From a virus, in the IMG/VR virus record IMGVR_UViG_3300046777_001606, positions 43,802-107,801 of that record: a stretch of DNA of 64,000 nucleotides. One strand, given 5' to 3'. This document shows, in pieces, positions 11,908-32,483 of this stretch (positions are counted from its first letter, which is position 1; each line of letters begins with the position of its first letter). A program made the position numbers and the translations under genes. The notes below the pieces were generated by a model. The model made no database searches. It was given only the letters and a program-made list of their open reading frames with translations, and was not told where the DNA came from.

Positions 11908-12912
11908 ATGTTTGAATATTTTTATCACGAAATTTTAAGAAAAACAATCATTTCTTTTGGTAATCTGTTTAATAATATTACTATTAAGCACAAAGATGAG
12001 GATGATGATGTTTTCAGTACGCTAAAAGTTCCTCTAGCGTATGGTCCTACGCAGAAATTTTTAGCTCGCTTAGAGCAGTCTCGTGATTTAAATAAACCAG
12101 TTCAAATTACATTGCCCAGAATGTCTTTTGAATTTGTTGGATTAACATATGATGGGTCCAGGAAAGTTACAACAACTCAATCTTTTATTGCACCAACAAC
12201 AACAGATAAAACAGACATAAGAAGAACATACATGCCTGTTCCATACAATATGGAATTTGAACTTAGCATCATGGCAAAATTAAATGATGATATGCTTCAA
12301 ATAGTTGAGCAAATTTTACCGTACTTTCAACCAACTTACAATTTAACGGTTGATCTAGTATCAACAATTGGAGAAAAAAGAGATATTCCTGTGGTATTTG
12401 AAGGAATAACAATGCAAGATGATTATGAGGGGGACTTTAGTACTAGAAGAGTACTAATGTATACTTTACGATTTGTTGCTAAAACATATTTGTTTGGACC
12501 AATTTCTGGATCTTCTATTTCTTCGGATATTATCAAAAAAGTTTCTATTGGATATGTTTCGGGAGATCTTACAAAGACACCAACAAGAGAACTCACTTAT
12601 ACAGTAGAGCCAAGAGCAACAAAAAGTTACACGGGAAATACTGTTACTACTCTTTCTAACGATATTAGCGAAACTACCACTACAATTACAGTAGCCAGTT
12701 CTTCAGGAATTTCTGCAAACTCATATATTGTTATTGATGAAGAAGAAATGCAGGTCATTTCAGTAACTGGAAATAATTTAAAAGTATCCAGGGGTGCTGA
12801 TAATACATCAATATCATCTCATGTATCGGGATCTGGAGTAAAACTCATAACTACTGCAGATAACGATTTAATTGAAGCTGGAGATGATTTTGGATTTAGC
12901 GGATCACTATGA
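11908..12912 (+). CDS. gp15: Tail sheath stabiliser / tail terminator gp15
   Basis: FYHEILRKTIISFGNLFNNI, KVPLAYGPTQKFLARL, LPRMSFE, QIVEQILPYFQP. Confidence 0.93.
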   Translation: MFEYFYHEILRKTIISFGNLFNNITIKHKDEDDDVFSTLKVPLAYGPTQKFLARLEQSRDLNKPVQITLPRMSFEFVGLTYDGSRKVTTTQSFIAPTTTDKTDIRRTYMPVPYNMEFELSIMAKLNDDMLQIVEQILPYFQPTYNLTVDLVSTIGEKRDIPVVFEGITMQDDYEGDFSTRRVLMYTLRFVAKTYLFGPISGSSISSDIIKKVSIGYVSGDLTKTPTRELTYTVEPRATKSYTGNTVTTLSNDISETTTTITVASSSGISANSYIVIDEEEMQVISVTGNNLKVSRGADNTSISSHVSGSGVKLITTADNDLIEAGDDFGFSGSL

Positions 12913-13361
12913 AAATGACTAAAAAATATAAAAATTTAGATGATTCTTTCAACGTAGAAACTGAGATTGTATTGGAAGAAAAAAATGGGATTGATTTGAT
13001 TCAAAACCAAACACAAAATAATATAAATTTAAATACAAACTCAGATGATATTAAAAAAGATTATGAATATACCAGAGGAAATTTATATTCAATTATAGAA
13101 AAAGGTCAAGAAGCAATTAATGGGGTCTTAGAGTTAGCACAAGAAAGTGAAATGCCTAGAGCATATGAAGTGGTAGGTCAATTAATTAAAAATGTTGCAG
13201 ATGCTACAGACAAATTAATGGATCTACAAAAAAAATTAAAAGATATCGAAGAAACAAAAACGCAAAAAGGACCAACAAATGTTACAAATGCATTGTTTGT
13301 TGGATCAACTGCTGAGTTATCAAAATTATTGAAAGATGGATTAAACTCTCAAGATAAATAA
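12909..13361 (+). CDS. gp16: Terminase small subunit
   Basis: DYEYTRGNLY, PRAYEVVGQLIK, NALFVGSTAEL; synteny. Confidence 0.92.
   Translation: MKMTKKYKNLDDSFNVETEIVLEEKNGIDLIQNQTQNNINLNTNSDDIKKDYEYTRGNLYSIIEKGQEAINGVLELAQESEMPRAYEVVGQLIKNVADATDKLMDLQKKLKDIEETKTQKGPTNVTNALFVGSTAELSKLLKDGLNSQDK
13353..13360 (+). promoter_or_regulatory. Putative late promoter
   Basis: GATAAATA just upstream of the 13374 start. Confidence 0.6.
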
Positions 13362-15843: not shown

Positions 15844-18800
15844 ATGGCAGATCCAAACATTAAGATTAAACGATCATCCGTTCCGGGGAAAAGGCCAACG
15901 CTTGATCAAATATCTTTGGGTGAGTTAGGATTAAATACATATGATGGACAATTATTTACGCAGGTTGATACCTCTGGTGTTGGAATTGCAACTACAATTG
16001 CATCACTTACTCCTTGGAAAGAGAATTATGGTGGCGCATCAATTTTTTATGCAAATTCCGTTGGTGTAGGGACCACAAATCCATTAGGAACTTTTCAAGT
16101 TGGAACTGGCATCACAATGTATGGTGCCACAGGAATTATTAGTGCAACAAGATTTGATGGTGGATTGAATCCTTTAGGAAAATCATATTATGTTGCCACA
16201 AATGGAAGTGATAATAATACGGGAAATAATATTAATGAGCCATATTCAACACTTAAACATGCTTTGAGTGTTGCAACTTCTGGAGATACAATTTTTGTTC
16301 AGTCAGGTACATTTACAGAAGTTTTTCCCCTAACAGTTCCTGTGGGAGTAACTGTTAGAGGCGTTAGTCTTCGTGGAACTTTTATTCAACCAACGTCTGG
16401 CACACAACAAAATGATGGTTTCTTATTGAATGGTGAAACTACAGTTGAAGATCTAACGATTGGTAATATTTACGAACCTGGATATGCGTTTAAATTTGCA
16501 AATAATGCAAAAACTACAACTCGTTCTCCATACGTTCAGAGAGTTACTGTATTAAACAGAGGATCAGTAACTTCTGCAACAGATCCATATGGATTTGATA
16601 CTGCACACTCTCCACCGACCTCATATAAAGCAGGACGTGGTGTTCTGATTGATGGTAGTGTTCAAGACCCAACAACTCTTGAACCCGCAATGTTGTTTAA
16701 TGAGTGTACTTTCATCACTCCAAATAATACTGCGTTGGAGATGACTAATGGCGCAAGAACAGAGTGGGTCAATTGTTTTGCGTATCTTGCAGATAAAGGA
16801 GTCTATGCATATGACGGAAATGTTGGTCTTGCAAGTGCTGGATATGTAAGAATTAAAACTTCTGGATTTTCTGGAACAACTCCTGCAGCAAATGATGAAC
16901 TCTATTATCTTGAAGCAAATTCTCAATCGGGTACTTATGCTCAGGTTGGAACTGCTCTCACGATCACAAGAGTTGGTCATGGATTGACTGTTGGTGATAG
17001 AATTTTTGCAGATTTTACATCTGGAACAGCAACGGATGGATTTTATCGTGTTACTGGATATGTAGGAGTCAATACATTTTCAGTTACAATGGTTGGGTCA
17101 GCCACTACTAGTGGAAATGTATCTTATAAAGAAGCCTTAGGATTTGGTACAGTTAGAAGTTATACATCGGCAACTGGTTTATCTTCGATTACCGCAAAAG
17201 GTGAAGGTTTGTTTGAAATACCTTCATCAAGACTTGGTAAGACTGTCACTGGTTATGGTAATGCTTCATTATCATCCTCTCAAGAGAAGTTTGGAACTGC
17301 TTCGTTAGTTTTAGATGGAACTGGTGATTATATTAGATGTGAAGGTGGAACTGATTTTGCATTTGCTGGAAACTTTACAGCAGAAACCTGGATTTATCCA
17401 ACAAGTGTTGCTGGAAATAGATATCTTTTTTCACTTGGATCAGAAGCAGCAGGTAGATATAATCTTTTTCTAGTAAGTGGTGTTCTAACTGGTAATTTTT
17501 ATGGCGCTTCTTCCACGACTTTTGGTGGATCTATTTCCACTAATACTTGGACACATATTGCATTAGTTCGTTCTGGTTCAACCATTACTGTATATGTAGA
17601 TGGAACTGCACTTGGAACAACCGAAACAAACTCTTCTGCAATTGGTAACACCGGACAATTAACAATTGGTGCTGATACCAGTGGTGTTAACACCTTTGTT
17701 GGATATATTGATGAATTAAGAATTTCAAATACCGCAAGATATACTGGTAACTTTAGTACAGCAACATCTCAATTCAATTCTGATGGAAGTGATAAATTAC
17801 TTCTTCACTTTGATGGCGTAACAGGAAGCACATCATTTACTGATAGTTCAATTCCAACTCAGGATATACGTTGGGTTCGTTCTGGAGTAGGAATTGCAAC
17901 TGCAACCAAGATTACACTTGCCGATTATCAGCAGTTTGGTGCTGAAATGAGATCGATTGGATCTGCTGTAGTCTTCGGTAATACTGGCATCAGTGCAAGT
18001 GGACCTGGCGTTGGACTAAGAATGTTTGCCTTTAACTTTGGGCATATTGGATCTGGTAAAGATTTTAGTCAGGATGTATCTCTTGTTAATCAGGCAGCAG
18101 AAGTTGTTAAGACTAACAATGCTAATGTTTATTTTGTATCGATTGATCAATCTGGCGATTTTAGAGTTGGTGATGCTTTCTACGTTAACCAAGAAGCAGG
18201 AACTGTAAACTTTGGTGGACAGAATTTTACACTGAATAGTCTATCGGATCTTAATATTACTGATGGTGTAAACACAAATACAATTACACCAACAACGGCA
18301 ACGATTGGTAATATTCAAATTTCTGGAAATGAGATTACCTCAACTTCAGGTAACATTAATATTAATCCATCTGGAACCTCAGAAACTAATGTTGATGGTA
18401 ATTTAAATGTTAGTGGTATTTTAACTGCCTCTGTATTACAGACTGGTGCCTTGCAATTAGGAGATACTTCCATTGCTCTTGATGATACTGGTTCTAATGG
18501 GACCATCAGACTTAATACTGATAATGTAGAAGCATTAAGAGTTACAAATAATCAAAGAGTTGGTATTGCTAGCATTGCACCAACGTCAAGATTAGATGTT
18601 GGTGGCGATGTTAAAATTAGTGGTGTTATTACAGCTACAACATTTAGTGGTCAGGTTAATTCTGGTGTAGCTACTATTACAACACTTAATACTACAACCG
18701 GAAATATTGTTACTGGTGTCGTAACAACCTTAACAAGCACTAATGCTAGTTTAACCAATATTAACTCTACTGGAATCAGTACTCTTGGAATTACCAGTAC

Positions 18801-19464
18801 CACTAATCTAACAACACAACAATTAGTCGTTTCTGGAGTTTCTACTTTTGTTAGTAATGTTAATTTAAGTGGTGAATTGAGAGGTCCTGCAGAATTCATC
18901 ATTGATCCAGCAGCAGTCGGTGATAATACTGGTGCGGTTAGAATCAAAGGTGATCTTTATGTTGACGGTACAACCACACAAATTAATTCGGCATCTTTAG
19001 AAATTGCAGATTTTATAGTTGGAATAGCTTCTACTGCAACAACTGATTTACTTGCTGATGGGGCTGGTATCAGAATTGGACCTGACAATACATTACTTTA
19101 TGATCATTCTAATACTGCATTAAAGTCTAGTGAAAACTTTAATCTTGTTTCTGACAAAACTTATAAGATCAATGGAATTGATGTCCTCAGTTCAACTTCT
19201 CTTGGAACGGGAGTCACCAATTCATCACTGACTTCTGTCGGCACTTTACTAACATTAAATGTAACTGGTGACTTGGCAGTTGATACCAATGTTCTTAAAG
19301 TTGACACTACTAACAATAGAATTGGGGTAAATAAAACTTCTCCCACCTATCCTTTGGATGTTGTGGGCGATATAAATAGTTCAACCGCAGTTAAGGTTAA
19401 TGGAGTTAGTGTTGTTCAATCTGCAGTCGATGAAGCACTAGCATTAGCAATTGCATTAGGATAA
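15844..19464 (+). CDS. Tail fibre protein with beta-helix and LamG/ConA-like domains
   Basis: N-terminal IKIKRS...GELGLN; YYVATNGSDNN...GDTIFVQSGTF beta-helix start; LamG motifs FTAETWIYP, WTHIALVR, GYIDELRIS; C-terminal ALALAIALG. Confidence 0.78.
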   Translation: MADPNIKIKRSSVPGKRPTLDQISLGELGLNTYDGQLFTQVDTSGVGIATTIASLTPWKENYGGASIFYANSVGVGTTNPLGTFQVGTGITMYGATGIISATRFDGGLNPLGKSYYVATNGSDNNTGNNINEPYSTLKHALSVATSGDTIFVQSGTFTEVFPLTVPVGVTVRGVSLRGTFIQPTSGTQQNDGFLLNGETTVEDLTIGNIYEPGYAFKFANNAKTTTRSPYVQRVTVLNRGSVTSATDPYGFDTAHSPPTSYKAGRGVLIDGSVQDPTTLEPAMLFNECTFITPNNTALEMTNGARTEWVNCFAYLADKGVYAYDGNVGLASAGYVRIKTSGFSGTTPAANDELYYLEANSQSGTYAQVGTALTITRVGHGLTVGDRIFADFTSGTATDGFYRVTGYVGVNTFSVTMVGSATTSGNVSYKEALGFGTVRSYTSATGLSSITAKGEGLFEIPSSRLGKTVTGYGNASLSSSQEKFGTASLVLDGTGDYIRCEGGTDFAFAGNFTAETWIYPTSVAGNRYLFSLGSEAAGRYNLFLVSGVLTGNFYGASSTTFGGSISTNTWTHIALVRSGSTITVYVDGTALGTTETNSSAIGNTGQLTIGADTSGVNTFVGYIDELRISNTARYTGNFSTATSQFNSDGSDKLLLHFDGVTGSTSFTDSSIPTQDIRWVRSGVGIATATKITLADYQQFGAEMRSIGSAVVFGNTGISASGPGVGLRMFAFNFGHIGSGKDFSQDVSLVNQAAEVVKTNNANVYFVSIDQSGDFRVGDAFYVNQEAGTVNFGGQNFTLNSLSDLNITDGVNTNTITPTTATIGNIQISGNEITSTSGNININPSGTSETNVDGNLNVSGILTASVLQTGALQLGDTSIALDDTGSNGTIRLNTDNVEALRVTNNQRVGIASIAPTSRLDVGGDVKISGVITATTFSGQVNSGVATITTLNTTTGNIVTGVVTTLTSTNASLTNINSTGISTLGITSTTNLTTQQLVVSGVSTFVSNVNLSGELRGPAEFIIDPAAVGDNTGAVRIKGDLYVDGTTTQINSASLEIADFIVGIASTATTDLLADGAGIRIGPDNTLLYDHSNTALKSSENFNLVSDKTYKINGIDVLSSTSLGTGVTNSSLTSVGTLLTLNVTGDLAVDTNVLKVDTTNNRIGVNKTSPTYPLDVVGDINSSTAVKVNGVSVVQSAVDEALALAIALG

Positions 19465-19468
19465 AGAA

Positions 19469-19798
19469 ATGGCAAATACTTTTAAAAGTTATACTAAAGC
19501 AAGTATTGGAACAGTTACTCAAGATGTGTATACTGTTCCTGCTGCAACCACTTCTGTAGTAATTGGTTTTTGTCTGACAAATAGAACTGCGAGTACTGTA
19601 ACTGCAGATGTCTATATTAATAAATCTGCGGCAGTCGATGATGTTTATATTGTAAAGGGAATTGAAATACCGACTGGTACGCTATATGATTTTAATGCAG
19701 GAAATAAAATAATTTTAGAAACTGGAGATAAAATACAAATTACTTCAAATACATCCACTTCTGTTGATGCGATAGTAAGTGTACTTGAGCAAACATAA
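19469..19798 (+). CDS. Small beta-sandwich virion adaptor protein
   Basis: 109 aa; MANTFK..., VYTVPAAT, KIILETGDKI motifs. Confidence 0.65.
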   Translation: MANTFKSYTKASIGTVTQDVYTVPAATTSVVIGFCLTNRTASTVTADVYINKSAAVDDVYIVKGIEIPTGTLYDFNAGNKIILETGDKIQITSNTSTSVDAIVSVLEQT

Positions 19799-19817
19799 GT
19801 AAGGAGTAAGTAATAAA

Positions 19818-22800
19818 ATGGGATATTTAGGAAAACAGGTAACAAGATTAACTGGTCCACTTTATGACTCAACTAATAAAGTAGGAACTGCAACTTCTGT
19901 TCTTGTTGGATCGTCTAGTGGAAGTGTCGAATGGCAAGCAATATCTCAAGCTTCTTTACAAGGAATTCAGGGTACACAAGGTTTACAAGGAGTTCAAGGT
20001 TTACAAGGCACTCAAGGTACTCAAGGACTTCAAGGTGTACAAGGACTTAATGGTATTCAAGGTGTTCAAGGAACTTTAGGTCCTCAAGGACTTCAAGGTG
20101 TACAAGGACTTAATGGTATTCAAGGTGTTCAAGGACTTCAAGGTGTACAAGGACTTAATGGTATTCAAGGTGTTCAAGGAACTTTAGGTCCTCAAGGTTT
20201 ACAAGGCACTCAGGGTACTCAAGGACTTCAAGGTGTACAAGGACTTAATGGTATTCAAGGTGTACAAGGACTTAATGGTATTCAAGGTGTACAAGGAACT
20301 TTAGGTCCTCAAGGAAGTAGTAATGGTGGAGTTGGAATTGCGACTGCTGGTGGAACAGTAGGTTTTGCTGCAACAATTCTCGATTTCAGAGGATCTGGAA
20401 TTTCTACAGTGACTGTCGCTGGTGGAGTTGCAACTATCAATGTTATATCTGGTGGTGCAGGTGGTGGTAGTGGATCTCAAGGTGCTCAAGGCACTACAGG
20501 ATCGCAAGGAACTCAAGGAACTTTCGGTACTCAAGGAACCACAGGATCTCAAGGTTCTGTTGGATCTCAAGGAACTTTCGGCACTCAAGGAACCACAGGA
20601 TCTCAAGGAACTTTTGGTTCTCAAGGAACTTTCGGTACTCAAGGAACCACAGGATCTCAAGGTTCTGTTGGATCTCAAGGAACTTTTGGTTCTCAAGGAA
20701 CTTTTGGTTCTCAAGGAACTTTCGGTACTCAAGGAACTTTCGGTACTCAAGGAACCACTGGATCTGGTTCTCAAGGTTCTCAAGGAACTACAGGAACTGG
20801 TACTCAAGGTTCTCAAGGAACTACAGGAACTAGTATTCAAGGATCTTCTGGTGATAGTTTCTGGATTGCAACATCAGCAGGAATCCACACACTTTCTGCT
20901 ATTGGTATAGGAACCACAAATCCAACTGACGCAATTACAATTGGTGACCTTGGAGATAATCCAACTGGTAAGAGTGGTAGAATTTTATTCCATGGAGTAG
21001 ATGGTAATAACTCCAATATATCCATTGGTTATAGAAGTAATTATCGATTAGTTGATGATCCTAATTCAAATTCCCCTACTGGAATTAATAACATTGCAAT
21101 AGGTGCTAATGCTGGAAACTTTAATGAAACAAGCGACTTAAATGTTTCTATAGGTAATAGGGCTCACTACAGTTTAACTAGTAAGTATGGTACAGCTGTA
21201 GGTTCACATGCCGGAGAACTTCAGCTTTCTGGATCAAATAATCTACATCTGGGTAGTTTTACTGGTATCTCTCAATATGGAGATTATAGGGTTATTATTG
21301 GAAGTGGTTATGGTGATACATTCCAGTCTGGATATAGAGGATATAAATTTGATGCACCAGATGCAGATCATCCAATTAACAATAATCAAGGAAAGAGCTA
21401 CCAACTTGCTATTGGTATAAGGACTTCTACTGCTCCTTCTAAGTATTGGTTAGTCGGTGATGAGAACTTTAATGTCGGTATAGGAACCACAAATCCAAAC
21501 ACATACAAATTATACGTAGGTGGTGACATCAATTTTACGGGTTCTTTATATCAAAATGGTACTCTTTTCTCCGGCGGCGGTGGTGGTGAGTCTTATTGGG
21601 CATCAACATCAGTAGGAATTAATACACTTTCTAATGTTGGTATAGGGACCACAAATCCAACATCAAAACTTCAAGTTGGTGGTAATGCTTATATTAGTGG
21701 AGTCACAACTTCTGCAGGTGGATTTCGCGTTCCGAATAATATTAATTTTGGACTTGGAAATGCCGGTGAGTTTACTTTCACAAGATATGGAGATCCATAT
21801 TCTAGTTCTGCGAATATAACTGCTGTTGGACTTACATTAAACATTCAGTCTCCTGGTACGAAAATTTTAGATAATGGTGGTAGTACTGTAGCTGATTTTA
21901 ATGTTAGTTCAGGTTCAGCTCGTTTGTATTCCGGAGGTGTAGTCAAACTTCAAACTAATAGTAATGGCGTAACAGTCACAGGAACTACTGTTACTAATCA
22001 ACTTTCTGTTTCTGGTGTTGCTACTGCTACAGGTGGATTTCGCATTCCGAATAGTGGAATTCCACTTAATATAAATGGTGTAGAAATTTTTGAGAATTTT
22101 TCAAACTTCTTTGTTAGACCATCTGGTAATGGTGGAGTTTATTTAAAATCGGGTAATGGTGCCATTGATCTAGCAAAATTTGAATATGGTGGTGCATCAA
22201 TTCTTTATTATAACAACTCTAGTAAATTTGAAACTACTGGTGCTGGTGCTACGGTTACTGGAACACTGTTTACAAATCAACTGAATGTTTCTGGTATTTC
22301 TACTTTTTCTGGTGGTGCTAATGTTGTTGGAACAGTCACAGCAACAGCATTTGTTGGTGATGGATCTGGATTAACTAATTTGACCAGTGGAGCTCAAGGA
22401 TCTGCTGGATCTCAAGGATCTACTGGATCTCAAGGATCTACTGGATCTCAAGGAACTTTTGGTACTCAAGGATCTACTGGATCTCAAGGAACTTTTGGTA
22501 CTCAAGGATCTACTGGAACTGGTACTCAAGGTGCTGCTGGAAGTGCTCAAGGAACTGCAGGTGCTCAAGGTGCTCAAGGAACTTTTGGTACTCAAGGATC
22601 TTCAGGAACTGGTTCTCAAGGTGCTCAAGGAACTTTTGGTACTCAAGGAACTTTTGGTACTCAAGGAACTGCAGGAACTGGTACTCAAGGTGCTGCTGGA
22701 AGTGCTCAAGGATCTACTGGATCTCAAGGAACTGCAGGAACTGGATCTCAAGGATCTTCAGGAACTGGTTCTCAGGGATCAACTGGATCTCAAGGAACTT

Positions 22801-22967
22801 TTGGTGCTCAAGGAACTTTTGGTACTCAAGGATCTACAGGAACTGGTTCTCAAGGTGCTGCTGGAAGTGCTCAAGGAACTGCAGGTGCTCAAGGTGCTGC
22901 TGGCGGTGGCGGCGGCGGAGGAGTAAGTAACTCTCTAGCAATCGCTTATGCTATAGGTTTAAGTTAA
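19818..22967 (+). CDS. Collagen-like (Gly-X-Gln) fibre protein with YadA-head-like repeats
   Basis: Three Gly-X-Y blocks; NIAIG/NVSIG/TAVG repeats; GIGTTNP motifs; C-terminal [10 protein letters not shown]. Confidence 0.8.
19959..20315 (+). repeat. Collagen-like repeat block 1 (G-[LVIT]-Q)
   Basis: 9-nt periodic repeats such as caaggacttcaaggtgtacaaggacttaatggtatt, with longer units duplicated. Confidence 0.9.
20472..20843 (+). repeat. Collagen-like repeat block 2 ([12 protein letters not shown])
   Basis: Repeated ctcaaggaacttt(c/t)ggt units. Confidence 0.9.
22389..22904 (+). repeat. Collagen-like repeat block 3 (GSQ/GST/GTQ/GAQ)
   Basis: Repeated ctcaaggatctactgga and ctcaaggaacttttggta units. 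Confidence 0.9.
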
Positions 22968-22970
22968 ATG

Positions 22971-22978
22971 AATAAATA
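22971..22978 (+). promoter_or_regulatory. Putative late promoter, with SD TAAGGAG downstream
   Basis: AATAAATA upstream of the 23001 start. Confidence 0.65.
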
Positions 22979-23000
22979 TACCATAAGGAGATAAAAAAAT

Positions 23001-26000
23001 ATGGCAAAGAAAGCACTAAGATCTTACACATTTACTCCAGGAATAGCAAATAATACTGTTATTGTAGTTGATGGATATTGGCCAGTAGAATCATTTCTTT
23101 TAATTACCAACACAACAATTGGGGCAATAATTTATAATTTTGCAGATCCTACTTTAGGTATAGTTAGTCACCAATACAATTCTACAACAAATAAAACACA
23201 AATAAATTTAGAAGCAGATACTTCATCGCAAGGATCTAGCCACAAACTTCAGATATTTGTCGATGATTGGCGTGGATCTGATATGCTTCCATCAGAATCA
23301 TATCAAGATCCAGTATCTAAACTAAGAGTATCAACCCCACAGGCAATCATCGATACAGACTTTGAATATTCTGTACAACCATCCAAATGGGAATCATTGT
23401 CATTAGTACGAAATAGACCATCAACTTACGCCACTGGATCTGGTGCTTCAGCATTCGATGTTATTTCTATGTCAGGAAATGGTTCATTTCCAAGATCATT
23501 TGTTTTTGTTACGACAACTACAGCACACAACTTAATTGCTGGAGATGTTGTTGTAGTTCAAGATGCATTGGAATCTAATGCTGATGGAACATATACAGTT
23601 CAATTCATATTCAGTAGCACCCAATTTGCATACCAAGCAAGGGGCTTTGTAAGTAGTGCTAGTGTATTTGATAGTGGTTTTACCACGGTTTATGCAGGTG
23701 GGGCATATAGAGGAGCAAATATTCAACTATTAAATTCAACTACAGCTGTACAGTATAGTGGTACTACTATAACAGTTTTTACTAGCCAACCACATAATTT
23801 AGTACCAGGAACATCTATTATATTGGGAAATATTGCTACGAATGGATCGAATGCACCAAATGGAACATGGGTTGTTGATAATGTTCCAAGTATAGATAGA
23901 TTTAGTTTTCAGGTTTCACAAGGTCCGTCTGGAGTTCTAAGTTCTGGAGTCAACTTCCAATCAGCTATTTTATATGCAATTTCTGATGGATATGTACAAC
24001 ATCGCGCAACTGATGGTGGCGTTTTGATTACACCCGGATCTATTGCTAATGGAGCTCAGCAAATTCGTCAAACAAGAAGATATTTTAGATATCAATCCGG
24101 TAAGGGAATTCAATTCTCAACTGGTGCAAAATTTACTCCAACTTTTGATGTTTCTACAATTAGTGCTTCCGGAACAACAATTACTGTAACGACTTTACAA
24201 GATCACAATTTACAAGTTGGTTCTGTTGTTAAAATTGAAGGTGTTGTATCTTCTGCTGGTGATGTGGATAGTGCTCGTTATAATTTGTCACTAACTTTTG
24301 TTACTGCTGTTACAGGACCTAAAACCTTTACTTACAGTGCGCTTTCAGCTCCAACAGATACCCTTCCGGGCGGAACAAATGTTTTTGCAACAGCTGTACT
24401 CTGGTCTGGTGCTTCTGTTCGTGTTGGGTTATATGATGATCAAAATGGATTTTTCTTTGAATATGATGGTAATCAACTTTATGCTTGTAGAAGACAATCA
24501 ATTAAAGAATTATTTGGAAGAATAGCAGTCAGTCCCCTAAGTTGTTATGTTTCTGGGACCAGTACAAGATTTAGAGAACAATTAGTTGTTGGTGATCATA
24601 TAATTATTAAGGGACAATCATATCAAATCAGTTCAATCATTGATGATACACAGTTAATGATAAGTCCAGCATATAGGGGAGAACTATTTGCATCAAACGT
24701 AAAATATTTAAAAACAGTTACTACTAGAATTCCACAATCTCAGTGGAATCTGGATAAAATGAATGGAACTGGACCATCTGGATATAATATTGATATATCA
24801 AAAATGCAGATGGCATATATTGATTATACTTGGTATGGTGCTGGATTTATTCGTTTTGGATTTCGTGCAATAAGTGGTGATATAATTTATTGTCATAAAA
24901 TATCTAATAACAATATCAACACTGCTGCTTATCAGCGTTCTGGTAATTTGCCGGCAAGATTTGAAGCGATAAACAGCGTTGCAGAACCAACTCGTGTGGT
25001 TGCTGGAGGAGTTGCTACTAGAGGATCTACTTTATTTTCTTCAGATACAACAATGTATGTTGAAAATGTTGATAATTGGCCAACTAGTAATGGATATATT
25101 TTAGTAGGTGATGCTACAAATCTAGAATTAATTGCATATTCGTTTATTGGTGCTTACAATTCAACCGTTCGTGGATATCCATTAAATGGTTTAACTAGAA
25201 GATTCGGATTTAATATTGCGGGTACTACAACTTTTGGTGGTTGGTCAACGGCTGCATACTTTATTCGCGCAACTCAAACAACAGTCAATTTTTCTCCAGA
25301 CACTACACTTGGAGGTAGTGGAACTTCTCAAGTTCATGCCAGACTTTTTTACTGCAATTGTGCGCCAGTGGTCAGTCATTGGGGAGTTTCCGTAATTATG
25401 GATGGTCGTTATGATGATGACAAAGCTTTGATCTTCACTGCTGGTATGAATAGATATCTTTCAGTTTCTGCCGGTACTCAAAGACCTCTTATTGCGATTC
25501 GTATTGCACCTTCAGTCGATTCTGGAATTGGAAGAAATTGGTCTATTCGTGAACTTGTTAATCGAATGCAATTAACATTAGAATCTGTTGAAGTTTTTTC
25601 TCAGGGGCAGTTTCTTATTGAAGGTATTCTAAATCCATTTTTTACATCTGGAGGTTTTGCAAACTTTCCGTCAAGTTGGACAGCAACTCCTGTTGGATCT
25701 GGATCTTTGGCTCAAGTTTATTATTTTGATTTAACTGGTAGTTATTCATCTTCAGCTGCTACTGGAACTGGTTCAATTTTTGGTGGGGATAGAATTTTTG
25801 GATTTTTCTCAGAAAACTCTGGTGGCACCAACTTTAGTACATCAAGAATTGACTTGAAAAATGTAAGAGATCTTGGAAATTCTATTATAAGTGGACCTGG
25901 TGGAGTTGGTGGTATTAATATTGGATTTCCAGCTGGACCAGATGTGCTTGTAATTACTGCTAGATTACTTGAACCTAGTGGAACTAAAAATATTGCAGCA

Positions 26001-26030
26001 AGAATTTCTTGGACTGAAGCGCAAGCATAA
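23001..26030 (+). CDS. Large virion structural/fibre-tip protein with repeated T..HNL..G beta modules
   Basis: N-terminal YTF...LLITN...IIYNF; three TxxHNLxxG repeats; core paralogous to ORF 31209. Confidence 0.7.
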   Translation: MAKKALRSYTFTPGIANNTVIVVDGYWPVESFLLITNTTIGAIIYNFADPTLGIVSHQYNSTTNKTQINLEADTSSQGSSHKLQIFVDDWRGSDMLPSESYQDPVSKLRVSTPQAIIDTDFEYSVQPSKWESLSLVRNRPSTYATGSGASAFDVISMSGNGSFPRSFVFVTTTTAHNLIAGDVVVVQDALESNADGTYTVQFIFSSTQFAYQARGFVSSASVFDSGFTTVYAGGAYRGANIQLLNSTTAVQYSGTTITVFTSQPHNLVPGTSIILGNIATNGSNAPNGTWVVDNVPSIDRFSFQVSQGPSGVLSSGVNFQSAILYAISDGYVQHRATDGGVLITPGSIANGAQQIRQTRRYFRYQSGKGIQFSTGAKFTPTFDVSTISASGTTITVTTLQDHNLQVGSVVKIEGVVSSAGDVDSARYNLSLTFVTAVTGPKTFTYSALSAPTDTLPGGTNVFATAVLWSGASVRVGLYDDQNGFFFEYDGNQLYACRRQSIKELFGRIAVSPLSCYVSGTSTRFREQLVVGDHIIIKGQSYQISSIIDDTQLMISPAYRGELFASNVKYLKTVTTRIPQSQWNLDKMNGTGPSGYNIDISKMQMAYIDYTWYGAGFIRFGFRAISGDIIYCHKISNNNINTAAYQRSGNLPARFEAINSVAEPTRVVAGGVATRGSTLFSSDTTMYVENVDNWPTSNGYILVGDATNLELIAYSFIGAYNSTVRGYPLNGLTRRFGFNIAGTTTFGGWSTAAYFIRATQTTVNFSPDTTLGGSGTSQVHARLFYCNCAPVVSHWGVSVIMDGRYDDDKALIFTAGMNRYLSVSAGTQRPLIAIRIAPSVDSGIGRNWSIRELVNRMQLTLESVEVFSQGQFLIEGILNPFFTSGGFANFPSSWTATPVGSGSLAQVYYFDLTGSYSSSAATGTGSIFGGDRIFGFFSENSGGTNFSTSRIDLKNVRDLGNSIISGPGGVGGINIGFPAGPDVLVITARLLEPSGTKNIAARISWTEAQA

Positions 26031-26062
26031 GATTTTATTTAAAAAATTAATTTTGAAATGTT

Positions 26063-27031
26063 ATGAATAATTTTGTAAAAAAATGTTTGGATCATGGTGG
26101 TCAAATTAAACCATTAATAATTCCATCAGAATTAACAAATGGTACGGGATTATTTAATCCATCAGTTTTTGTTGATGGTGAAAAAATATTAGTTAATGTA
26201 CGTCACTGTCAATATACACTTTACCATGCGGAATTAAAAAAATATGAGCACCAATGGGGACCTTTAGTTTATTTGAATCCAGAAAATGATATTAGTTTAA
26301 CAACAACAAATTATGTTTGTGAGATTGATGAATACTTAAATATTACATCATATAAAAAAGTTAATACTTCAGTATTGGATAAAAAGCCACTTTGGGAATT
26401 TGTTGGATTGGAAGATGCAAGATTGATCAAATGGGACAATAAATTTTATCTTACTGGAGTAAGACGAGATCTTGATACCATAGGAACTGGAAGAATGGAA
26501 TTGAGTGAAATTGAAATCTTGAAAAATGATGTCAATGAAGTTTCAAGATTTCGTATTCCGGCACCGAAAAAAAATGATTCGTACTGTGAAAAAAATTGGA
26601 TGCCAATTATAGATCAACCATATCATTATGTAAAATGGACAAATGGAACTGAAGTTGTAAAAGTTGATCCAAATAGCAAAACATGCGAAACTGTTGTTCT
26701 AAAGAATTTTATTCCTCACAATAAAGACCTCAGAGGAGGTTCTCAAGTTATTCCATACAAAGATGGATATTTAGCTTTGAATCATGAAACAGATTTATAT
26801 AAATCTGAGGCAGGTCGAAAAGATGCTACCTATAGGCATAGATTTACATATTGGAACAAAAATTGGGATATTCAAAAATTTTCAGATGTATTTTCATTTT
26901 TAAATGCAAAAATTGAATTTGCTTGTGGGTTATCAAAATATAAAAATGATTATATAATAACTTTTGGATTTCAGGATAATGCTGCATATATTCTTAGAGT
27001 TCCAGGATCATTTATGGAAAGTTTTGTATGA
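26063..27031 (+). CDS. Five-bladed beta-propeller glycoside hydrolase/transferase (GH130/Bmt-like)
   Basis: FNPS, GLEDARL, EKNWMP, LRGGSQ, IEFACGL and ITFGFQD motifs. Confidence 0.7.
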   Translation: MNNFVKKCLDHGGQIKPLIIPSELTNGTGLFNPSVFVDGEKILVNVRHCQYTLYHAELKKYEHQWGPLVYLNPENDISLTTTNYVCEIDEYLNITSYKKVNTSVLDKKPLWEFVGLEDARLIKWDNKFYLTGVRRDLDTIGTGRMELSEIEILKNDVNEVSRFRIPAPKKNDSYCEKNWMPIIDQPYHYVKWTNGTEVVKVDPNSKTCETVVLKNFIPHNKDLRGGSQVIPYKDGYLALNHETDLYKSEAGRKDATYRHRFTYWNKNWDIQKFSDVFSFLNAKIEFACGLSKYKNDYIITFGFQDNAAYILRVPGSFMESFV

Positions 27032-28998
27032 ATAAATTAAAATCTTTACCGTCAGTTTATTATGTCACTTTAGAAGACAGTAAAGAAAGACAAGATATTT
27101 TAAAAGAACAATTTTTTCATTATGGAATAACTCCCAATGCAATTACTTCAAAAAGATATAACGAATCAAATGATATTATTACTGGAAAATATGTTTACCA
27201 ATTAACAGATCAAACAAAAGGAAATGCAACATCACACTTAAAAGCTTTATTACATTGGTATGAAAATACTGATGAAGAATATGGATTTTTTTGTGAGGAT
27301 GATTTGAGTTTGGAGACAGTAAAATATTGGAACTTTACTTGGGAAGAATTCATTTTGAGTTTGCCAAGTGATTGGCAAGCAGTTCAACTCACAGTTATTA
27401 GAGATAAATTTGATTGTGTTAGATTTAGAGAAAGATTATGGGATGATTGGGCAGTAACTGCATACATTTTAAAAAGAGATTATGTTCGTTCAGTTATCAA
27501 TAATTATTGTAGAGAAAATTCTTATCATTTAGAATTAAAAAATTGTGATGTTATGCCAATATGCGAGAATTTGCTTTTAAGTAATATATCAAAAGTTTAT
27601 AGTATACCCCTCTTTATAGAAAATACAAATATAAGTTCCACAAATTTGCAAGATATAGAATTGAAAAATGGACAAAAACCTAATCATTATTATTCTGCGG
27701 ATTATGTTTTAAATTGGTGGGAAAAAAATGGAAAAATTTACAGTTTAAATATGATTATGGACAATAAGTATCCAGAACTTATCGATTATTGTTTAGATAG
27801 TGAAGATGCAGAAAAAAACTTTAATCTTGCATTGTGGTATGAAAATCAAGGACAAACAGCTTCTGCCATATCTTTTTTTATAAGATCTGCAGAAAGAACC
27901 GACGATATATTAATGTCATATGAGTGTTTAATAAGAGCATCACTTTGTTTTGATAGACAAGGAAATAGAAATAGTACTGTTCGAGGTTTACTTCAACATG
28001 CAATTTCTATTTGTCCGGAAAGACCAGAAGCATATTACTTATTGAGTAGATTTGATGAAAGACATCAAATGTATGCTGATTGCTATACGATGTGTAATAT
28101 CGCTCTTTCAACATGCAATTTCAATTGCAGTCCTTTGCTAACAGATGTTGAATATCCAGGAAAATACGGTTTAATCTTTGAAAAGGCTGTGTCCTCGTAT
28201 TGGTGGGGTAAAGGTGAAGAAAGTAGGCAACTATTTCAGATACTAAAAAATGAGTATAAAGAAGAACTTGATGATATTCATTATAATTCTGTACAAACAA
28301 ATTTAATGAATCTTGGATGTTGGATTTCAAAAAGTATTAAATATGAAAGATCAAGGTATGACCAATTTAAATTTAAATTTAATGGTCTAGAAAAAATTGA
28401 AAAGAGTAATGGACAAGCTCTTCAAGATATGTTCATTTTAAGTATTTTAAATGGAAAAGAAAATGGATTGTATCTTGAGATAGGAGCTCAAGAACCCTTT
28501 TTCCAAAATAATACTGCAATTTTAGAAACAGATTTTGGTTGGAAAGGAATTTCTATTGAAATTAAAGAAGATCTTTGTAACATGTTTTCTCAACAAAGAA
28601 AAAACAAAATTTTGTGTGCAGATGCAACAACTGTAGATTATTCAAAGTTACTAAAAGAATTTAATAGTGGTACAGTATTTGATTTTCTACAACTAGATTG
28701 CGAACCATCAAAAACAACATTTGAAGTCCTTTTAAATATTCCATTTGATGAATACAAATTTGCAATTATTGCCTATGAACATGATCATTATGTGGACATG
28801 ACAGGAACTTATAGAAATAAATCTAGAAATTATTTGAAGGCAATGGGGTATGAATTAGTTGTTGCAAATGTATCTCAAAACGAAAATACACCTTTTGAAG
28901 ATTGGTGGGTTCATCCAGACTTGATAGATAAAGAAACTATTGAAAAATTTAAGTCAATTCAAGAAGTGACTGATGTAAGAAAATATTTCTATTCATAA
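27028..28998 (+). CDS. Fusion protein: GT25 glycosyltransferase + TPR + FkbM-type SAM methyltransferase
   Basis: GT25: YYVTLE..ER, SHLKAL, CEDD, LPSDW, AYIL. TPR: AISICPERPEAYYLL. FkbM: YLEIGA, NNT..LE..GWKGISIE, DFLQLDCE, EHD, EDWWVHP. ATGA-coupled to upstream gene. Confidence 0.8.
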   Translation: MNKLKSLPSVYYVTLEDSKERQDILKEQFFHYGITPNAITSKRYNESNDIITGKYVYQLTDQTKGNATSHLKALLHWYENTDEEYGFFCEDDLSLETVKYWNFTWEEFILSLPSDWQAVQLTVIRDKFDCVRFRERLWDDWAVTAYILKRDYVRSVINNYCRENSYHLELKNCDVMPICENLLLSNISKVYSIPLFIENTNISSTNLQDIELKNGQKPNHYYSADYVLNWWEKNGKIYSLNMIMDNKYPELIDYCLDSEDAEKNFNLALWYENQGQTASAISFFIRSAERTDDILMSYECLIRASLCFDRQGNRNSTVRGLLQHAISICPERPEAYYLLSRFDERHQMYADCYTMCNIALSTCNFNCSPLLTDVEYPGKYGLIFEKAVSSYWWGKGEESRQLFQILKNEYKEELDDIHYNSVQTNLMNLGCWISKSIKYERSRYDQFKFKFNGLEKIEKSNGQALQDMFILSILNGKENGLYLEIGAQEPFFQNNTAILETDFGWKGISIEIKEDLCNMFSQQRKNKILCADATTVDYSKLLKEFNSGTVFDFLQLDCEPSKTTFEVLLNIPFDEYKFAIIAYEHDHYVDMTGTYRNKSRNYLKAMGYELVVANVSQNENTPFEDWWVHPDLIDKETIEKFKSIQEVTDVRKYFYS

Positions 28999-29001
28999 AT
29001 A
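28994..29001 (+). promoter_or_regulatory. Putative late promoter
   Basis: CATAAATA overlapping the stop of ORF 27028. Confidence 0.6.
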
Positions 29002-29020
29002 TAAAAAAGTGCGCTTTATA

Positions 29021-30889
29021 ATGCATAAGATTAAATCCCATAAAACAGTTGAACAGATTGCAAAGAAGCATCGTCTTGATGTTTCTTTCATTCAAAAGCA
29101 ACTCGATATGGGAGAACCAATTGAACATGAGCACACTCAAGATCATGATTTAGCTAAGGACATTGCTCTGCAGCATTTAGATGAAATTCCCGATTACTAC
29201 ACTCGTTTGAAAAAAATGGAAGCGGATGCTAAAAAGCATCATAAGCAATTTAAAGATGTAAAAGAAGAAACAACTTCAGGAGATGATGGTCTTCATGATT
29301 GGTTTAATAAATCAAAATCATCTGATGGGAAAAAAGGTTGGGTTCAATTGGGTGGCAAATATGCAGGAAAACCATGCGCTCGCCAACCAGGTCAAACTTC
29401 TACTCCCAAATGCGGAAGTTCTAAAATGAAAAAAGCACTTTCGAAAGATGAAGAAGAAGCAGCAAGACGTAGAAAAAATCGCTTAGATCCAAATCAACCA
29501 GAAAAATCTGGTGGCGCTAAACCAACAAATGTAAGAACTGAAGAGATGGACCTACAAGAAGTAAAGGATAAACCAGGAAAGGGTAGCGGCAAAAAAGATG
29601 CATGTTACCAAAAGGTAAAATCAAGATATGATGTTTGGCCAAGTGCATATGCATCTGGCGCATTAGTTAAGTGCCGTAAAGTTGGTGCGGCAAATTGGGG
29701 AACTAAATCAGAAGCAGTTGAAAATGAAGAGCAAAGATATTGCCCACTATGCGATAAAAGAGAAACAAGATCAGAGTGTTCTTACGGAGAAAAAACTTGG
29801 GATAAAGTTTCGATTAAAGATCATGAATACTCAATGGCTAGGTCCGAATTAAAAAATATTATTGATGCAGCTAAAAGGCTTGAAAAGAAGGTAGGAAAAG
29901 GAGAAGGATCATTGGAAGCTTGGGTACAATCGAAAATTACCAAAGCAGCAGATTATATTGATACTGCAGCAGATTATGTTGCAAGTGGAGAAATGCAGGA
30001 AGCAAAAACACTTGGGTTTGAAATTAGAAAGTCTTCTGGAGCTGGAGCACTTACTCCAGATGCAGCAAAACAATTGGGTCCAAAAGCAGTTGAACTCCAA
30101 AAGAAAAAAGCTGCCGCAGTTGATTTGCCAAAAGTAAGAAAAGAACATACTGGTATTGTTGCAGATATCTTAAAAGAGATTGAAGAAGAAGGACCTTGCT
30201 GGAGAGGTTATAAACAAGTAGGAATGAAGAAAAAGGGTAAAAAGATTGTTCCGAATTGCGTTCCTATGAGAGAAGAAAATAAAAATATCTGTTCATATTG
30301 TGGATGCGATCCATGCGAATGCGAAAAAATTAATGAATCTGTTCGTTTACCTGCTATGAATGGAAATATTATTGAAATAATTCTTTCTTGGAGAGGAAAA
30401 ACTTATATTTCAAAAATGTTTTTCCCCCAAACAAAAGTTCCGAATAGAAGAGAAATTACTGACGAGATCGTAAAAGTTTATCCAGATGCTAAAGTTCTGG
30501 CATTTAAAGTTTCAGATTTGCAGCCAGGTCAACCATTGATTCAAGCAGGATTGCAAGGAGGAAGTGCTGCTACTCCCGGTCCATCTAAAAAATATGTAAA
30601 ACCCTATGGAGAACAACTAGAATTCAATGAAGACTGGCAAAAAGTTAATCGCCAAGATAAAACTGATGGATTAAGTCCTGCTGCAGTAAAAGCATATCGT
30701 CAAGAAAATCCAGGATCTAAGTTACAAACTGCAGTAACAGAAAAGAAACCAACTGGAAAAAGAGCAAAACGTCGTGCCTCATTTTGTCGCCGTATGAAAG
30801 GCATGAAATCCAAATTAACTTCAGCAGAAACTGCTAGAGATCCCGATTCAAGAATCAACAAAGCACTTCGTCGTTGGAACTGTAACTAA
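29021..30889 (+). CDS. Multi-module basic protein, possibly an internal head protein
   Basis: ATG 29021 preferred over GTG 29009; modules EHEHT..AKDIALQHLDEIPDYY (DUF5661-like), WPSAYASGALVKCRK, WVQSKITKA, CWRGY..GMKKKG...VPNCV, RRASFCRRM...RRWNC. Confidence 0.7.
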   Translation: MHKIKSHKTVEQIAKKHRLDVSFIQKQLDMGEPIEHEHTQDHDLAKDIALQHLDEIPDYYTRLKKMEADAKKHHKQFKDVKEETTSGDDGLHDWFNKSKSSDGKKGWVQLGGKYAGKPCARQPGQTSTPKCGSSKMKKALSKDEEEAARRRKNRLDPNQPEKSGGAKPTNVRTEEMDLQEVKDKPGKGSGKKDACYQKVKSRYDVWPSAYASGALVKCRKVGAANWGTKSEAVENEEQRYCPLCDKRETRSECSYGEKTWDKVSIKDHEYSMARSELKNIIDAAKRLEKKVGKGEGSLEAWVQSKITKAADYIDTAADYVASGEMQEAKTLGFEIRKSSGAGALTPDAAKQLGPKAVELQKKKAAAVDLPKVRKEHTGIVADILKEIEEEGPCWRGYKQVGMKKKGKKIVPNCVPMREENKNICSYCGCDPCECEKINESVRLPAMNGNIIEIILSWRGKTYISKMFFPQTKVPNRREITDEIVKVYPDAKVLAFKVSDLQPGQPLIQAGLQGGSAATPGPSKKYVKPYGEQLEFNEDWQKVNRQDKTDGLSPAAVKAYRQENPGSKLQTAVTEKKPTGKRAKRRASFCRRMKGMKSKLTSAETARDPDSRINKALRRWNCN

Positions 30890-31208: not shown

Positions 31209-32483
31209 ATGGCTATTTGGAATAAGAATACACAAGACTTTCTAGATCAAGAAAGATCTTTATTTGAGGTTTATAATATTGCAGATCACTGGGGAAACCA
31301 GACAGATTGGAGACCTCAATTTTCTAATAACAACAGATTAAAAGTTGCTCCGTTCCAAACAGTTTTCTTTAATACCTTTCAGTATGGTAAAGAAACTGAT
31401 GTTTGGGATGAGAGAATCGTTGGAGTTGGAACTGCAACTCATAATGTTTCTGCTAGTAATGTAATCATGCAAGTTGGTTCTACTATGGGTAGTAAAGTCA
31501 TCAGGCAAACCAAGAATGTGATGAGATACATTCCTGGTAGACCAGCAACTCTTGCATTCGCAATTCGTCTTGATACTCCACAGGTAGGTATTCGTAGAAG
31601 ATTTGGATTGTTTGATGATTATAATGGCGCATACTTTGAGGATAATGGTGGAACATATTCATATGTAATTCGCACTACTACATCTGGTATCACTACAGAA
31701 ATAGCAGTAGGTAGAGATAATTGGAATGGTGAAAAGTTTGATGGTAATGGTTGGACTGGTATAACCGCAGACCCAACAAAACAACAGATGATTTCTATTG
31801 CTTATGAGTGGTATGGTGCAGGAACTGTAGATTTTGCTTGGTTAATGGCAGGCGAAACTGTTAAGAGTCATACCTTTTATAACTCAAACATTAATGATAA
31901 GGTTTGGTGTTCTACTCCATTCCTTCCTATTCGTCTTGAAATTGAGAACATAGTTGGTGTTGCAGGAACTCATTATCTTTATCAGGGTTCCAATTCTCTT
32001 ATTCAGGAAGGAGAACCAGAAAAACTTGGAACTCTTTTGAGTATTGCAAATCCCATCACGGGAACAACGATGTCATTGGCAAATACATTCTATCCAATTG
32101 TAAGTATTCGTTTGAAGAGTACTAATTTAACTGGTGTGATGCTTTTGAGATCATTGCAGGCAGCAACGAATGATAATACTAATGTTTATTGGAAACTTAT
32201 TCAGAATGCAACAAATACAGGCGGAACTTGGGTAGATCATCCAGATCCAAACTCTTTTATGCAATATAATATTACTGAAACTGCAACGACTGGTGGAACT
32301 ACTTTGTTAAATGGATTTATTGTTGGTGGTGGTGCAGCATTGATTAATATTGATGATAAAGCAGCCCTTCAGTTAGGTAGAAGTGGTATTGGAACAATTA
32401 GTGATACTTATACTCTCGCTTGTGCATCTCCTAATGTTAATAAAGCAGCACTTGCAGTATTGAACTGGATTGAACAAAGGTAA
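31209..32483 (+). CDS. Virion structural protein, paralogue of the ORF 23001 core
   Basis: RQTK..RY.PG, RFGLFDDYNGAYFE, WNGEKFDGNG, YEWYGAG and C-terminal LNWIEQR. Confidence 0.7.
   Translation: MAIWNKNTQDFLDQERSLFEVYNIADHWGNQTDWRPQFSNNNRLKVAPFQTVFFNTFQYGKETDVWDERIVGVGTATHNVSASNVIMQVGSTMGSKVIRQTKNVMRYIPGRPATLAFAIRLDTPQVGIRRRFGLFDDYNGAYFEDNGGTYSYVIRTTTSGITTEIAVGRDNWNGEKFDGNGWTGITADPTKQQMISIAYEWYGAGTVDFAWLMAGETVKSHTFYNSNINDKVWCSTPFLPIRLEIENIVGVAGTHYLYQGSNSLIQEGEPEKLGTLLSIANPITGTTMSLANTFYPIVSIRLKSTNLTGVMLLRSLQAATNDNTNVYWKLIQNATNTGGTWVDHPDPNSFMQYNITETATTGGTTLLNGFIVGGGAALINIDDKAALQLGRSGIGTISDTYTLACASPNVNKAALAVLNWIEQR

Follow-up and report, generated by a model that had tools for sequence, protein, structure and literature searches.

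The window analysed here, a stretch of 64,000 nucleotides that forms the final 64 kb of the linear 107.8-kb IMG/VR record IMGVR_UViG_3300046777_001606 (~53% complete), was assigned by its genes to a T4-like cyanophage. Between the genes for gp16 and gp17 it encodes a collagen-like virion fibre and, after one further structural gene, a GH130-like five-bladed beta-propeller and a fusion protein made of a GT25 glycosyltransferase domain, a TPR superhelix and an FkbM-like domain. Across phages, genes for such a propeller and its TPR protein (hereafter the pair) co-occur with genes for collagens that are nearly free of proline and carry Gln at the Y position of the Gly-X-Y triplet (G-X-Q). We favour, with about even confidence, the reading that the module acts in the infected cell to modify a virion fibre protein while virions assemble, with the collagen-like G-X-Q fibre as the substrate. 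All open reading frames (ORFs) concerned lie on the + strand, exactly at the coordinates given in the initial annotation, which had been made from the letters alone and had proposed an O-glycosylation system for the fibre. The elements are:

19818-22967, + strand: collagen-like virion fibre of 1049 aa (P0001; Pfam Collagen, E 1.4e-34; tail-fibre PHROG families)
aa 49-168 of the fibre, ~nt 19962-20321, + strand: Gly-X-Y block 1, by triplet count
aa 219-314 of the fibre, ~nt 20472-20759, + strand: Gly-X-Y block 2, by triplet count
aa 858-1007 of the fibre, ~nt 22389-22838, + strand: Gly-X-Y block 3, interrupted, by triplet count
22971-22978, + strand: motif AATAAATA resembling a late promoter, 23 nt upstream of the 23001-26030 gene
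23001-26030, + strand: virion structural protein of 1009 aa (P0002; phrog_5838, E 6e-231), first gene of the putative late unit
26063-27031, + strand: GH130-like five-bladed beta-propeller of 322 aa (P0003; model pLDDT 85.6; VIA-align)
27028-27762, + strand: GT25 (GT-A fold) domain, aa 1-245 of the fusion protein P0004 (structure match; phrog_2835, E 9e-42)
27763-28359, + strand: TPR superhelix, aa 246-444 of P0004 (profile and fold search)
28360-28998, + strand: Rossmann-type FkbM-like methyltransferase-fold domain, aa 445-656 of P0004 (model topology, hhalign and ESM Atlas)
28995-29001, + strand: late-promoter-like ATAAATA, overlapping the stop codon of the fusion gene (28996-28998), end of the putative unit

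The fibre gene is the sole collagen gene in the whole 107.8-kb record. Triplet counts agree with the earlier description of three nearly Pro-free Gly-X-Y blocks, two of them rich in Thr/Ser, and add Gln as the typical residue at Y. Block 1 consists of 40 triplets with L, V, T or I at X, Q at Y in 31 and 3 Pro; block 2 has T (19) or S (12) at X and Q, F or T at Y; in block 3, S or T stands at X and Q, T or F at Y, and both latter blocks contain zero Pro. The most frequent triplets are GTQ, GSQ and GTF, and Lys is absent from the repeats. A search for relatives of the central domain of the fibre gave a single partial match, from an island devoid of both collagen and the enzymes.

Viral metagenomes contain relatives of the propeller in abundance, in no fewer than 597 stretches of IMG/VR and 5502 clusters of proteins. 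For comparison, 82 phage loci were collapsed to 54 lineages at 85% identity. A collagen ORF was present within 5 kb upstream of the pair in 12 of 36 lineages and downstream in 2 of 39 (p 0.002); within 8 kb, the counts were 15/31 upstream and 1/22 downstream. A looser Gly-periodicity criterion left these counts unchanged, the extra Gly-rich upstream ORFs being no collagens. Furthermore, islands of close relatives with at least 5 kb of upstream sequence (n=36) were collected by anchoring on the virion gene 31209-32483 (82-96% identical). Only one of them, L127, has the pair, and only this one has a collagen gene, located directly upstream of the propeller; with the window included, collagen is found in 2/2 islands with the pair vs 0/35 without it. 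Five long contigs of close relatives (83-175 kb) contain neither collagen nor propeller. At the level of whole records, collagen was found in 3/3 with the pair vs 2/15 without (p 0.012): the record of the window has one collagen gene, 3 kb upstream of the pair, the cultured phage DSL-LC02 has three, all clustered beside the pair, and the 244 kb of S-SCSM2R contain a single one, at a distance of 6 kb; among ten complete Kyanoviridae genomes without the pair, only ACG-2014f and P-SSM2 encode collagen. The collagen-bearing protein of S-SCSM2R has 978 aa and seems to be one of two large 'FhaB' exoproteins in the published proteome of this phage. Ten pair contigs that lacked collagen at the fetched locus were checked as a whole, and six of these carry it elsewhere on the fragment. 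The converse approach, a blind DNA-pattern scan with 1-14 kb of flanks available, revealed the pair in 6 of 122 G-X-Q loci vs 0 of 120 G-P-X loci (p 0.015), the G-P-X control pattern being palindromic at GGNCC and a less clean collagen sample than G-X-Q. The co-occurrence test with G-X-Q collagen that had been suggested for this system was thus positive. Enzymes beside a collagen gene are also seen in DSL-LC02, L003, L012, L028, L054, L127 and others.

The type of collagen is specific as well. Repeats of pair-associated collagens have a Pro fraction of at most 0.06, with the exception of L030 at 0.29, and Gln occupies 0.12-0.49 of the X and Y positions, in nearly all cases more than 0.2; in the collagens of phages without the pair (ACG-2014f, P-SSM2 and the lineage L090-L097), Pro amounts to 0.13-0.54 and Gln to at most 0.18. 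As judged from these sequences, all co-occurrence tests point one way, specifically to Pro-free G-X-Q collagens. The Thr content of pair-associated repeats ranges from 0 to 0.64, and the repeats of the L059-L061 and L078 collagens are almost without Ser/Thr, a point against the proposed modification of the fibre repeats. Since some of these collagens are nearly free of Ser/Thr and Gln at Y is constant, O-glycosylation of Thr cannot explain everything, and the earlier assumption of Thr/Ser as the acceptor was not supported.

The gene neighbourhood allows for a second target. The gene of the 1009-aa protein lies immediately upstream of the propeller on the same putative transcript, its homologues precede the propeller in 9/82 loci, and in many loci the upstream position is taken not by collagen but by Gly-rich ORFs or by large fibre-like ones rich in Ser/Thr. 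The module may accordingly act on another virion protein, be it the 1009-aa protein, non-collagen parts of the fibre or several fibres, and the link to collagen would then reflect a shared fibre region; mycobacteriophages are said to glycosylate capsid and tail-tube proteins (reported by Freeman and colleagues in 2023, as cited in PMC12801897), which would be a precedent. We regard this as unlikely, because a homologue of the 1009-aa protein stands without the enzymes in 16/16 loci and an association with G-X-Q as opposed to G-P-X collagens is hard to obtain from neighbourhood alone. In L006, L007, L021 and L038, a P0002 homologue separates the propeller from the collagen gene, and in L068 the order collagen, P0002 homologue, propeller is kept with the homologue split into two ORFs. 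In several pair loci, tandem ORFs of ~300 aa with 30% Gly and GG/GGxGG runs, which are not collagens, are located directly upstream of the propeller (L055:7620-9544, L082:1871-4690, L080:6086-6940 and L015:8815-9918); they may represent another class of fibre or decoration protein.

Expression together with structural genes is consistent with the map of late-promoter-like motifs. ATAAATA occurs 20 times on the + strand of the window, and 9 of the 20 (among them those at 13354, 13706, 22972, 28995, 34405, 37347, 39282 and 40537) lie at most 60 nt upstream of a gene start vs 4.6% expected (~tenfold), a distribution in keeping with a T4-type core of late promoters. No enrichment in the window was seen for the perfect T4 consensus TATAAATA (3 found vs 7.5 expected). 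Copies of ATAAATA are present at 22972 and 28995 with none in between, and terminator-like sites in the region 19-33 kb are no commoner than in shuffled sequences (10 vs 7.0 +/- 2.6), the two on the + strand within the unit being both weak and both intragenic. Since late motifs are found only at 22972 and 28995 and terminators do not exceed the shuffles, the gene of the 1009-aa protein and both enzyme genes look like a single late transcription unit, in agreement with the earlier statement that neither promoter nor terminator separates the motif at 22971 from the enzymes. The enzymes were also described as more AT-rich than their flanks, and indeed GC is 0.27-0.31 across 26-29 kb vs 0.35-0.47 in the flanks (0.29 for the enzyme genes vs 0.36-0.41 for their neighbours). 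GC at third codon positions (GC3) of the two enzyme genes is 0.155 and 0.167, and that of flanking genes 0.11-0.17. As GC3 equals that of the flanks, the low GC content is due to amino-acid composition and not to foreign codon usage, and a recent foreign origin of the enzyme genes, for which the AT-richness could be taken, was rejected.

The propeller carries the two motifs that had been recognised from its translation, GLEDARL (aa 115-121) and EKNWMP (aa 176-181). When its model was compared by VIA-align, the top 21 entries listed were all GH130 structures (Z 22.9-20.1, 261-280 residues aligned, rmsd 3.1-4.1), and Foldseek matched the model to GH130 with E 1e-9, so the GH130-type call holds at the level of the fold (Z 22.9). 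Assignment to GT108 instead was rejected: Leishmania MPT-2 (Z 17.5-18.0) and MPT-1 (Z 17.4) score below every GH130 row, and GH43 structures reach Z ~17. Sequence comparison gave far less. The Pfam family PF04041 is matched below threshold (E 0.0021, 17.5 bits vs a cut-off of 26) over aa 87-139 alone, which span the GLEDARL region; a profile of 39 propeller homologues found no PDB chain at E <= 1, a single-sequence search gave a match at chance level only, and a few homologues carry a precomputed PF04041 match. Invariant in the 39 homologues are E117, D118, R120, R134, R135, D136, K177, N178, R224, H241 and H259. On its predicted structure, the propeller is therefore a distant GH130-like protein, not a demonstrable GH130 member, and a candidate beta-mannosyl (or other glycosyl) transferase or phosphorylase.

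Its best structural matches are mannoside phosphorylases, and the propeller of S-SCSM2R is listed in the literature as mannan-degrading 'MGP' among cell-wall genes (PMC12801897). Read in this way, P0003 would be a catabolic beta-mannoside phosphorylase or hydrolase, its gene either auxiliary metabolic or one for a depolymerase, and would have no relation to the fusion protein. This appears improbable given that the propeller is obligately paired, and often translationally coupled, with a TPR/transferase protein, that its GH130 sequence match is sub-threshold and that it is encoded within a late structural operon. Moreover, beta-1,2-specific GH130 and GT108 enzymes are also known as transferases and can use GDP-mannose (GDP-Man) as donor (PMC12814180), which makes a synthetic role of the propeller plausible.

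The fusion protein P0004 (27028-28998) has 656 aa, and its start codon overlaps the stop codon of the propeller gene as ATGA (27028-27031), as had been noticed before. Its model (pLDDT 90.7) contains no membrane segment. The N-terminal domain, of GT-A fold at aa 1-210 of the model, is similar in structure to Mimivirus R655 (Z 16.8, 189 residues aligned) and human COLGALT1 (Z 16.1, 194 aligned), and profile searches matched R655 (E 1.9e-4) and the GT25 structure 8xlz (E 3.3e-4). Pfam did not find PF01755 in P0004 itself at E <= 0.1; homologues with 51-64% identity carry it. An E-D-D motif (E90, D91, D92) is conserved in 29-30 of the 30 homologues having the domain and presumably corresponds to the essential E-D-D of COLGALT1. 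The middle part, a superhelix at aa 246-434 of the model, matched consensus TPR structures with E 7e-14 to 4e-8 in profile searches and, by fold, the TPR region of OGT as well as LGN (Z 17.1 each); single-sequence Pfam matches to TPR were sub-threshold.

The C-terminal domain is the least defined of the three. Strands and helices alternate in its model, there was no Pfam match and no PDB chain below E 1 with the domain profile, and the fold search with the whole 656-aa model was dominated by TPR matches and did not place this domain. An hhalign comparison with bona fide PF05050 domains of homologues gave a probability of 31% (E 5e-4, 94 columns) and aligned the G-rich motif I, the E-P strand and the D-x-E-G region, where P0004 reads D-C-E-P. 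The nearest ESM Atlas clusters are viral 'FkbM domain' proteins (score 0.98, TM 0.89), of whose members just 11-24% have PF05050. In L008, L073 and L057, an FkbM-like domain (BLAST label) and a Pfam-confirmed PF05050 domain are found within one protein. We therefore call the modelled domain FkbM-like, a term not meant to claim membership of the family. Taken at the level of the fold, the GT25 and TPR calls of the initial annotation were upheld (GT25 Z 16.8, TPR Z 17.1), and its FkbM call in the looser form of an FkbM-like methyltransferase (TM 0.89).

PHROG labels the GT25 family 'glucosyltransferase' and files it under the moron/host-takeover class, and DNA glycosylation has been speculated about (PMC12801897). 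That the enzymes glycosylate or methylate phage DNA against restriction is nevertheless very improbable, as no fold found here resembles known DNA glucosyltransferases and late expression in a structural operon, the TPR domain and the association with fibre genes speak for another substrate.

The comparison of the 82 loci revealed which parts of the module are constant. The propeller is joined by a TPR protein in 78; 52 loci contain an FkbM-like domain and only 23 a GT25 domain. The constant core is thus propeller plus TPR, with GT25 as an accessory. GT25 as the obligatory initiating enzyme was therefore rejected, and the scheme put forward at the outset, in which GT25 initiates, the propeller extends and the FkbM-like domain caps the glycan, was not supported. 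The TPR partner is modular, with GT25, GT2, GT17, FkbM, Methyltransf_24, radical SAM/SPASM or DUF6445 appended by lineage, a domain set typical of tailoring enzymes. TPR partners with an additional DUF6445 or radical SAM/SPASM domain are encoded at L008:3818-6286, L038:10974-13577, L057:10968-13802 and L073:4145-6985; the DUF6445 consensus shows an H-x-D ... H pattern resembling that of 2OG-Fe(II) oxygenases. In animals, collagen is modified by protein hydroxylases having TPR-like substrate-binding domains, and by this analogy the DUF6445 and radical SAM additions may provide a further collagen-style tailoring step.

A search of the genomes of 185,579 prokaryote species gave 12 propeller matches, all of them on contigs (2-61 kb) of metagenome-assembled genomes (MAGs) from scattered taxa, and none in isolate bacterial genomes. 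All 12 contigs also encode the TPR partner, and one of the genes adjoins a terminase gene. The contigs (L448-L459) are assigned to unrelated phyla including Saccharibacteria and Woesearchaeota and have kept phage synteny, so that they are probably phage DNA binned into MAGs. By this distribution, the propeller family is in effect phage-restricted. Two cultured phages, S-SCSM2R and DSL-LC02, have the pair.

Stand-alone GT25 genes of the cyanophages S-SRM01, S-SCSM1, ACG-2014f, SynMITS9220M01 and S-T4 (L179-L183) encode proteins ~30% identical to the P0004 domain and annotated as GT25. They end clusters of glycosyltransferases, methyltransferases, a sulfotransferase or fucosyltransferases beside hli and ferredoxin genes, a setting unlike that of the fused gene.

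Such multi-glycosyltransferase/methyltransferase clusters by hli and petF, outside structural operons, speak for another explanation, by which the enzymes remodel glycans of the host surface, such as the O-chain of lipopolysaccharide (LPS) or exopolysaccharide, and thereby block superinfection or alter recognition. Characterised bacterial GT25 enzymes indeed act on lipo-oligosaccharide (LOS). It is also the usual published reading for glycosyltransferases in the host-recognition clusters of cyanophages and pelagiphages (PMC7029224, PMC12801897). For the module studied here we consider it rather unlikely: its enzyme genes are inside a late structural unit and have no promoter of their own, the TPR fusion is predicted to be soluble, its model being without membrane segments, isolate bacterial genomes do not contain the family, and a specific association with G-X-Q collagen is not predicted by it.

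These observations are in line with modification of the fibre during assembly, for which we propose the following course. What was shown comprises the folds, the arrangement of the genes, the positions of the motifs and the co-occurrence; beyond the proteins being made late and together, every step is inferred, including the protein nature of the substrate, the modified residue, the sugars, the sequence of the reactions and any influence on helix stability, adsorption or shielding. In the late phase of infection, one transcript would yield the 1009-aa protein and both enzymes, and the ATGA overlap suggests that the latter two are made in matching quantities. The TPR region would bind the unfolded or folded repeat region of the fibre, by analogy to OGT and SgtA, the propeller would probably attach a hexose (by analogy, mannose) in beta linkage with a sugar-phosphate or a GDP-sugar as donor, the GT25 domain would add a hexose from a UDP-sugar, and the FkbM-like C-terminal domain would methylate. 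As its substrate, the collagen-like fibre with Pro-free G-X-Q repeats, whose gene lies 3 kb upstream, is the most likely.

Several findings weigh against this course. In about two thirds of the pair lineages, the 5 kb upstream are free of collagen genes, so that collagen is not an obligatory neighbour of the pair; the upstream genes in these lineages often encode large fibre-like or Gly-rich proteins or are small and non-structural. Four of the ten pair contigs without collagen at the fetched locus have none anywhere, these fragments being 10-40% complete, and just ~5% of the G-X-Q collagen loci, with their short flanks, have the pair. A collagen gene followed by a P0002-like gene is also found without the enzymes (L090-L097), GT25 is missing from most TPR partners, and the co-occurrence statistics ignore kinship, as they were calculated with no correction for phylogeny. 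On the biochemical side, the LOS-directed activity of characterised bacterial GT25 enzymes has to be added, most GH130 enzymes with a characterised activity are catabolic, either phosphorylases or hydrolases, and TPR modules are also part of polysaccharide export machinery.

Among described systems, SgtA and BclA3 of Clostridioides difficile are the closest functional analogue, with an enzyme of GT-A and TPR domains encoded beside the gene of a collagen-like surface fibre: SgtA, whose gene is adjacent to bclA3, attaches O-GlcNAc to Thr (and acts on Ser) inside the Gly-X-Y repeats of BclA3 (PMC7157674). BclA glycosylation in the exosporium of Bacillus belongs to the same kind of system. The GT domains of SgtA and P0004 are likened by fold and architecture alone. 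SgtA is a GT2/WcaA-like protein of 358 aa that has neither a methyltransferase domain nor a propeller partner, whereas the phage module has both, and the BclA3 repeats are Pro-rich GPT with Thr at Y, whereas those of the phage are free of Pro, X being Thr/Ser and Y being Gln. A viral counterpart is A064R of PBCV-1, a GT-GT-methyltransferase which builds the glycan of the virus' own capsid protein (PMC9614988). Like P0004, A064R (with A061L) combines glycosyltransferase and SAM methyltransferase activities in a single viral chain of ~640 aa and methyl-caps a glycan. Unlike P0004, it has two rhamnosyltransferase domains and no TPR, and its product is the N-glycan of a capsid protein of a eukaryotic virus; the two are likened by architecture, with no sequence relationship shown.

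The GT25 fold of P0004 is shared with COLGALT1/GLT25D1 and Mimivirus R655 at a sequence identity of ~13%. Mimivirus, a precedent for collagen-modifying enzymes of viruses, encodes collagens together with L230, R699 and the GT25-like R655 (PMC9546862); there, as here, a GT25 protein and collagen share a genome. For R655, the activity is itself still unproven, and COLGALT1 galactosylates hydroxylysine, whereas the phage repeats are Lys-free and the window is without a hydroxylase gene. GH130 beta-mannoside phosphorylases and GT108 (Leishmania MPT-2) have the same five-bladed propeller as P0003; the known members act on free oligosaccharides or mannogen, have no TPR partner and are not encoded in virion operons. 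Mycobacteriophage glycosyltransferases, which reportedly decorate proteins of their own virions, belong to other enzyme families and involve no collagen fibre.

Decoration of their own structural proteins by viruses is therefore known; new are the phage-restricted GH130-like partner, the modular TPR scaffold, the Pro- and Lys-free G-X-Q repeats and the setting in a T4-like bacteriophage. We found no paper that links these cyanophage genes to collagen fibres. A wider proposal, which we put forward tentatively and regard as possible but doubtful, is that aquatic T4-like phages have a dedicated maturation machinery for Pro-free, Gln-rich G-X-Q collagen, which would replace the prolyl/lysyl hydroxylation and hydroxylysine glycosylation of animal collagen. 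It would consist of a phage-restricted GH130-like transferase and a TPR scaffold with interchangeable GT25, GT2, GT17, FkbM-like methyltransferase, 2OG-oxygenase-like DUF6445 and radical SAM domains, and the modified site would be the Thr/Ser at position X or possibly the invariant Gln at position Y of the triple-helix repeats.

Glycosyltransferases in the host-recognition region of marine and freshwater myoviruses are routinely annotated as modifiers of host LPS or as metabolic genes. If the module modifies the fibre, models of host range, adsorption, grazing or antibody recognition of abundant cyanophages would change, and virion glycosylation would extend from mycobacteriophages and giant viruses to T4-like phages. 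It would also represent a natural answer to the stabilisation of proline-free collagen helices and a compact enzyme set for engineering glycosylated bacterial collagens. Since the pair is present in two cultured phages, the question is directly testable.

The location in the gp16-gp17 island, which had been named from the start, is borne out by PHROG matches to a baseplate wedge protein and to gp13, gp14, gp15, gp16 and gp17, all encoded on the + strand like the genes of the module, and gene by gene the closest cultured relatives are Synechococcus phages. The framing genes are:

within the window, + strand: gp15 (phrog_227)
12909-13361, + strand: gp16 (phrog_445)
19469-19798, + strand: small ORF of 109 aa (phrog_1276), left edge of a 9.5-kb stretch that has no counterpart in close relatives
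32490-34133, + strand: gp17 (phrog_2)

In L123, L129, L143 and L144, the homologue of 15844-19464 is directly followed by that of 29009-30889, and in several other relatives (L099 and L104 among the islands compared) the latter comes straight after gp16. Since the gene order of the relatives skips the whole stretch, 19469-28998 is an insertion/deletion unit holding the fibre and the enzymes. By this comparison, the fibre-plus-enzyme stretch is a 9.5-kb indel cassette and the gp16-gp17 island is highly plastic. Libraries of anti-phage defence systems were searched as well and gave zero matches. The ORF listed downstream of the cassette opens with GTG at 29009, only 14 nt after the late motif at 28995 (region 28995-29021), and the real start of this gene is probably a later codon. 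The domain comprising aa 469-659 of P0002 (23001-26030) is also present in a conserved virion protein of 424 aa encoded upstream of gp17 (31209-32483, phrog_1645), and by this shared domain the two proteins are partial paralogues.

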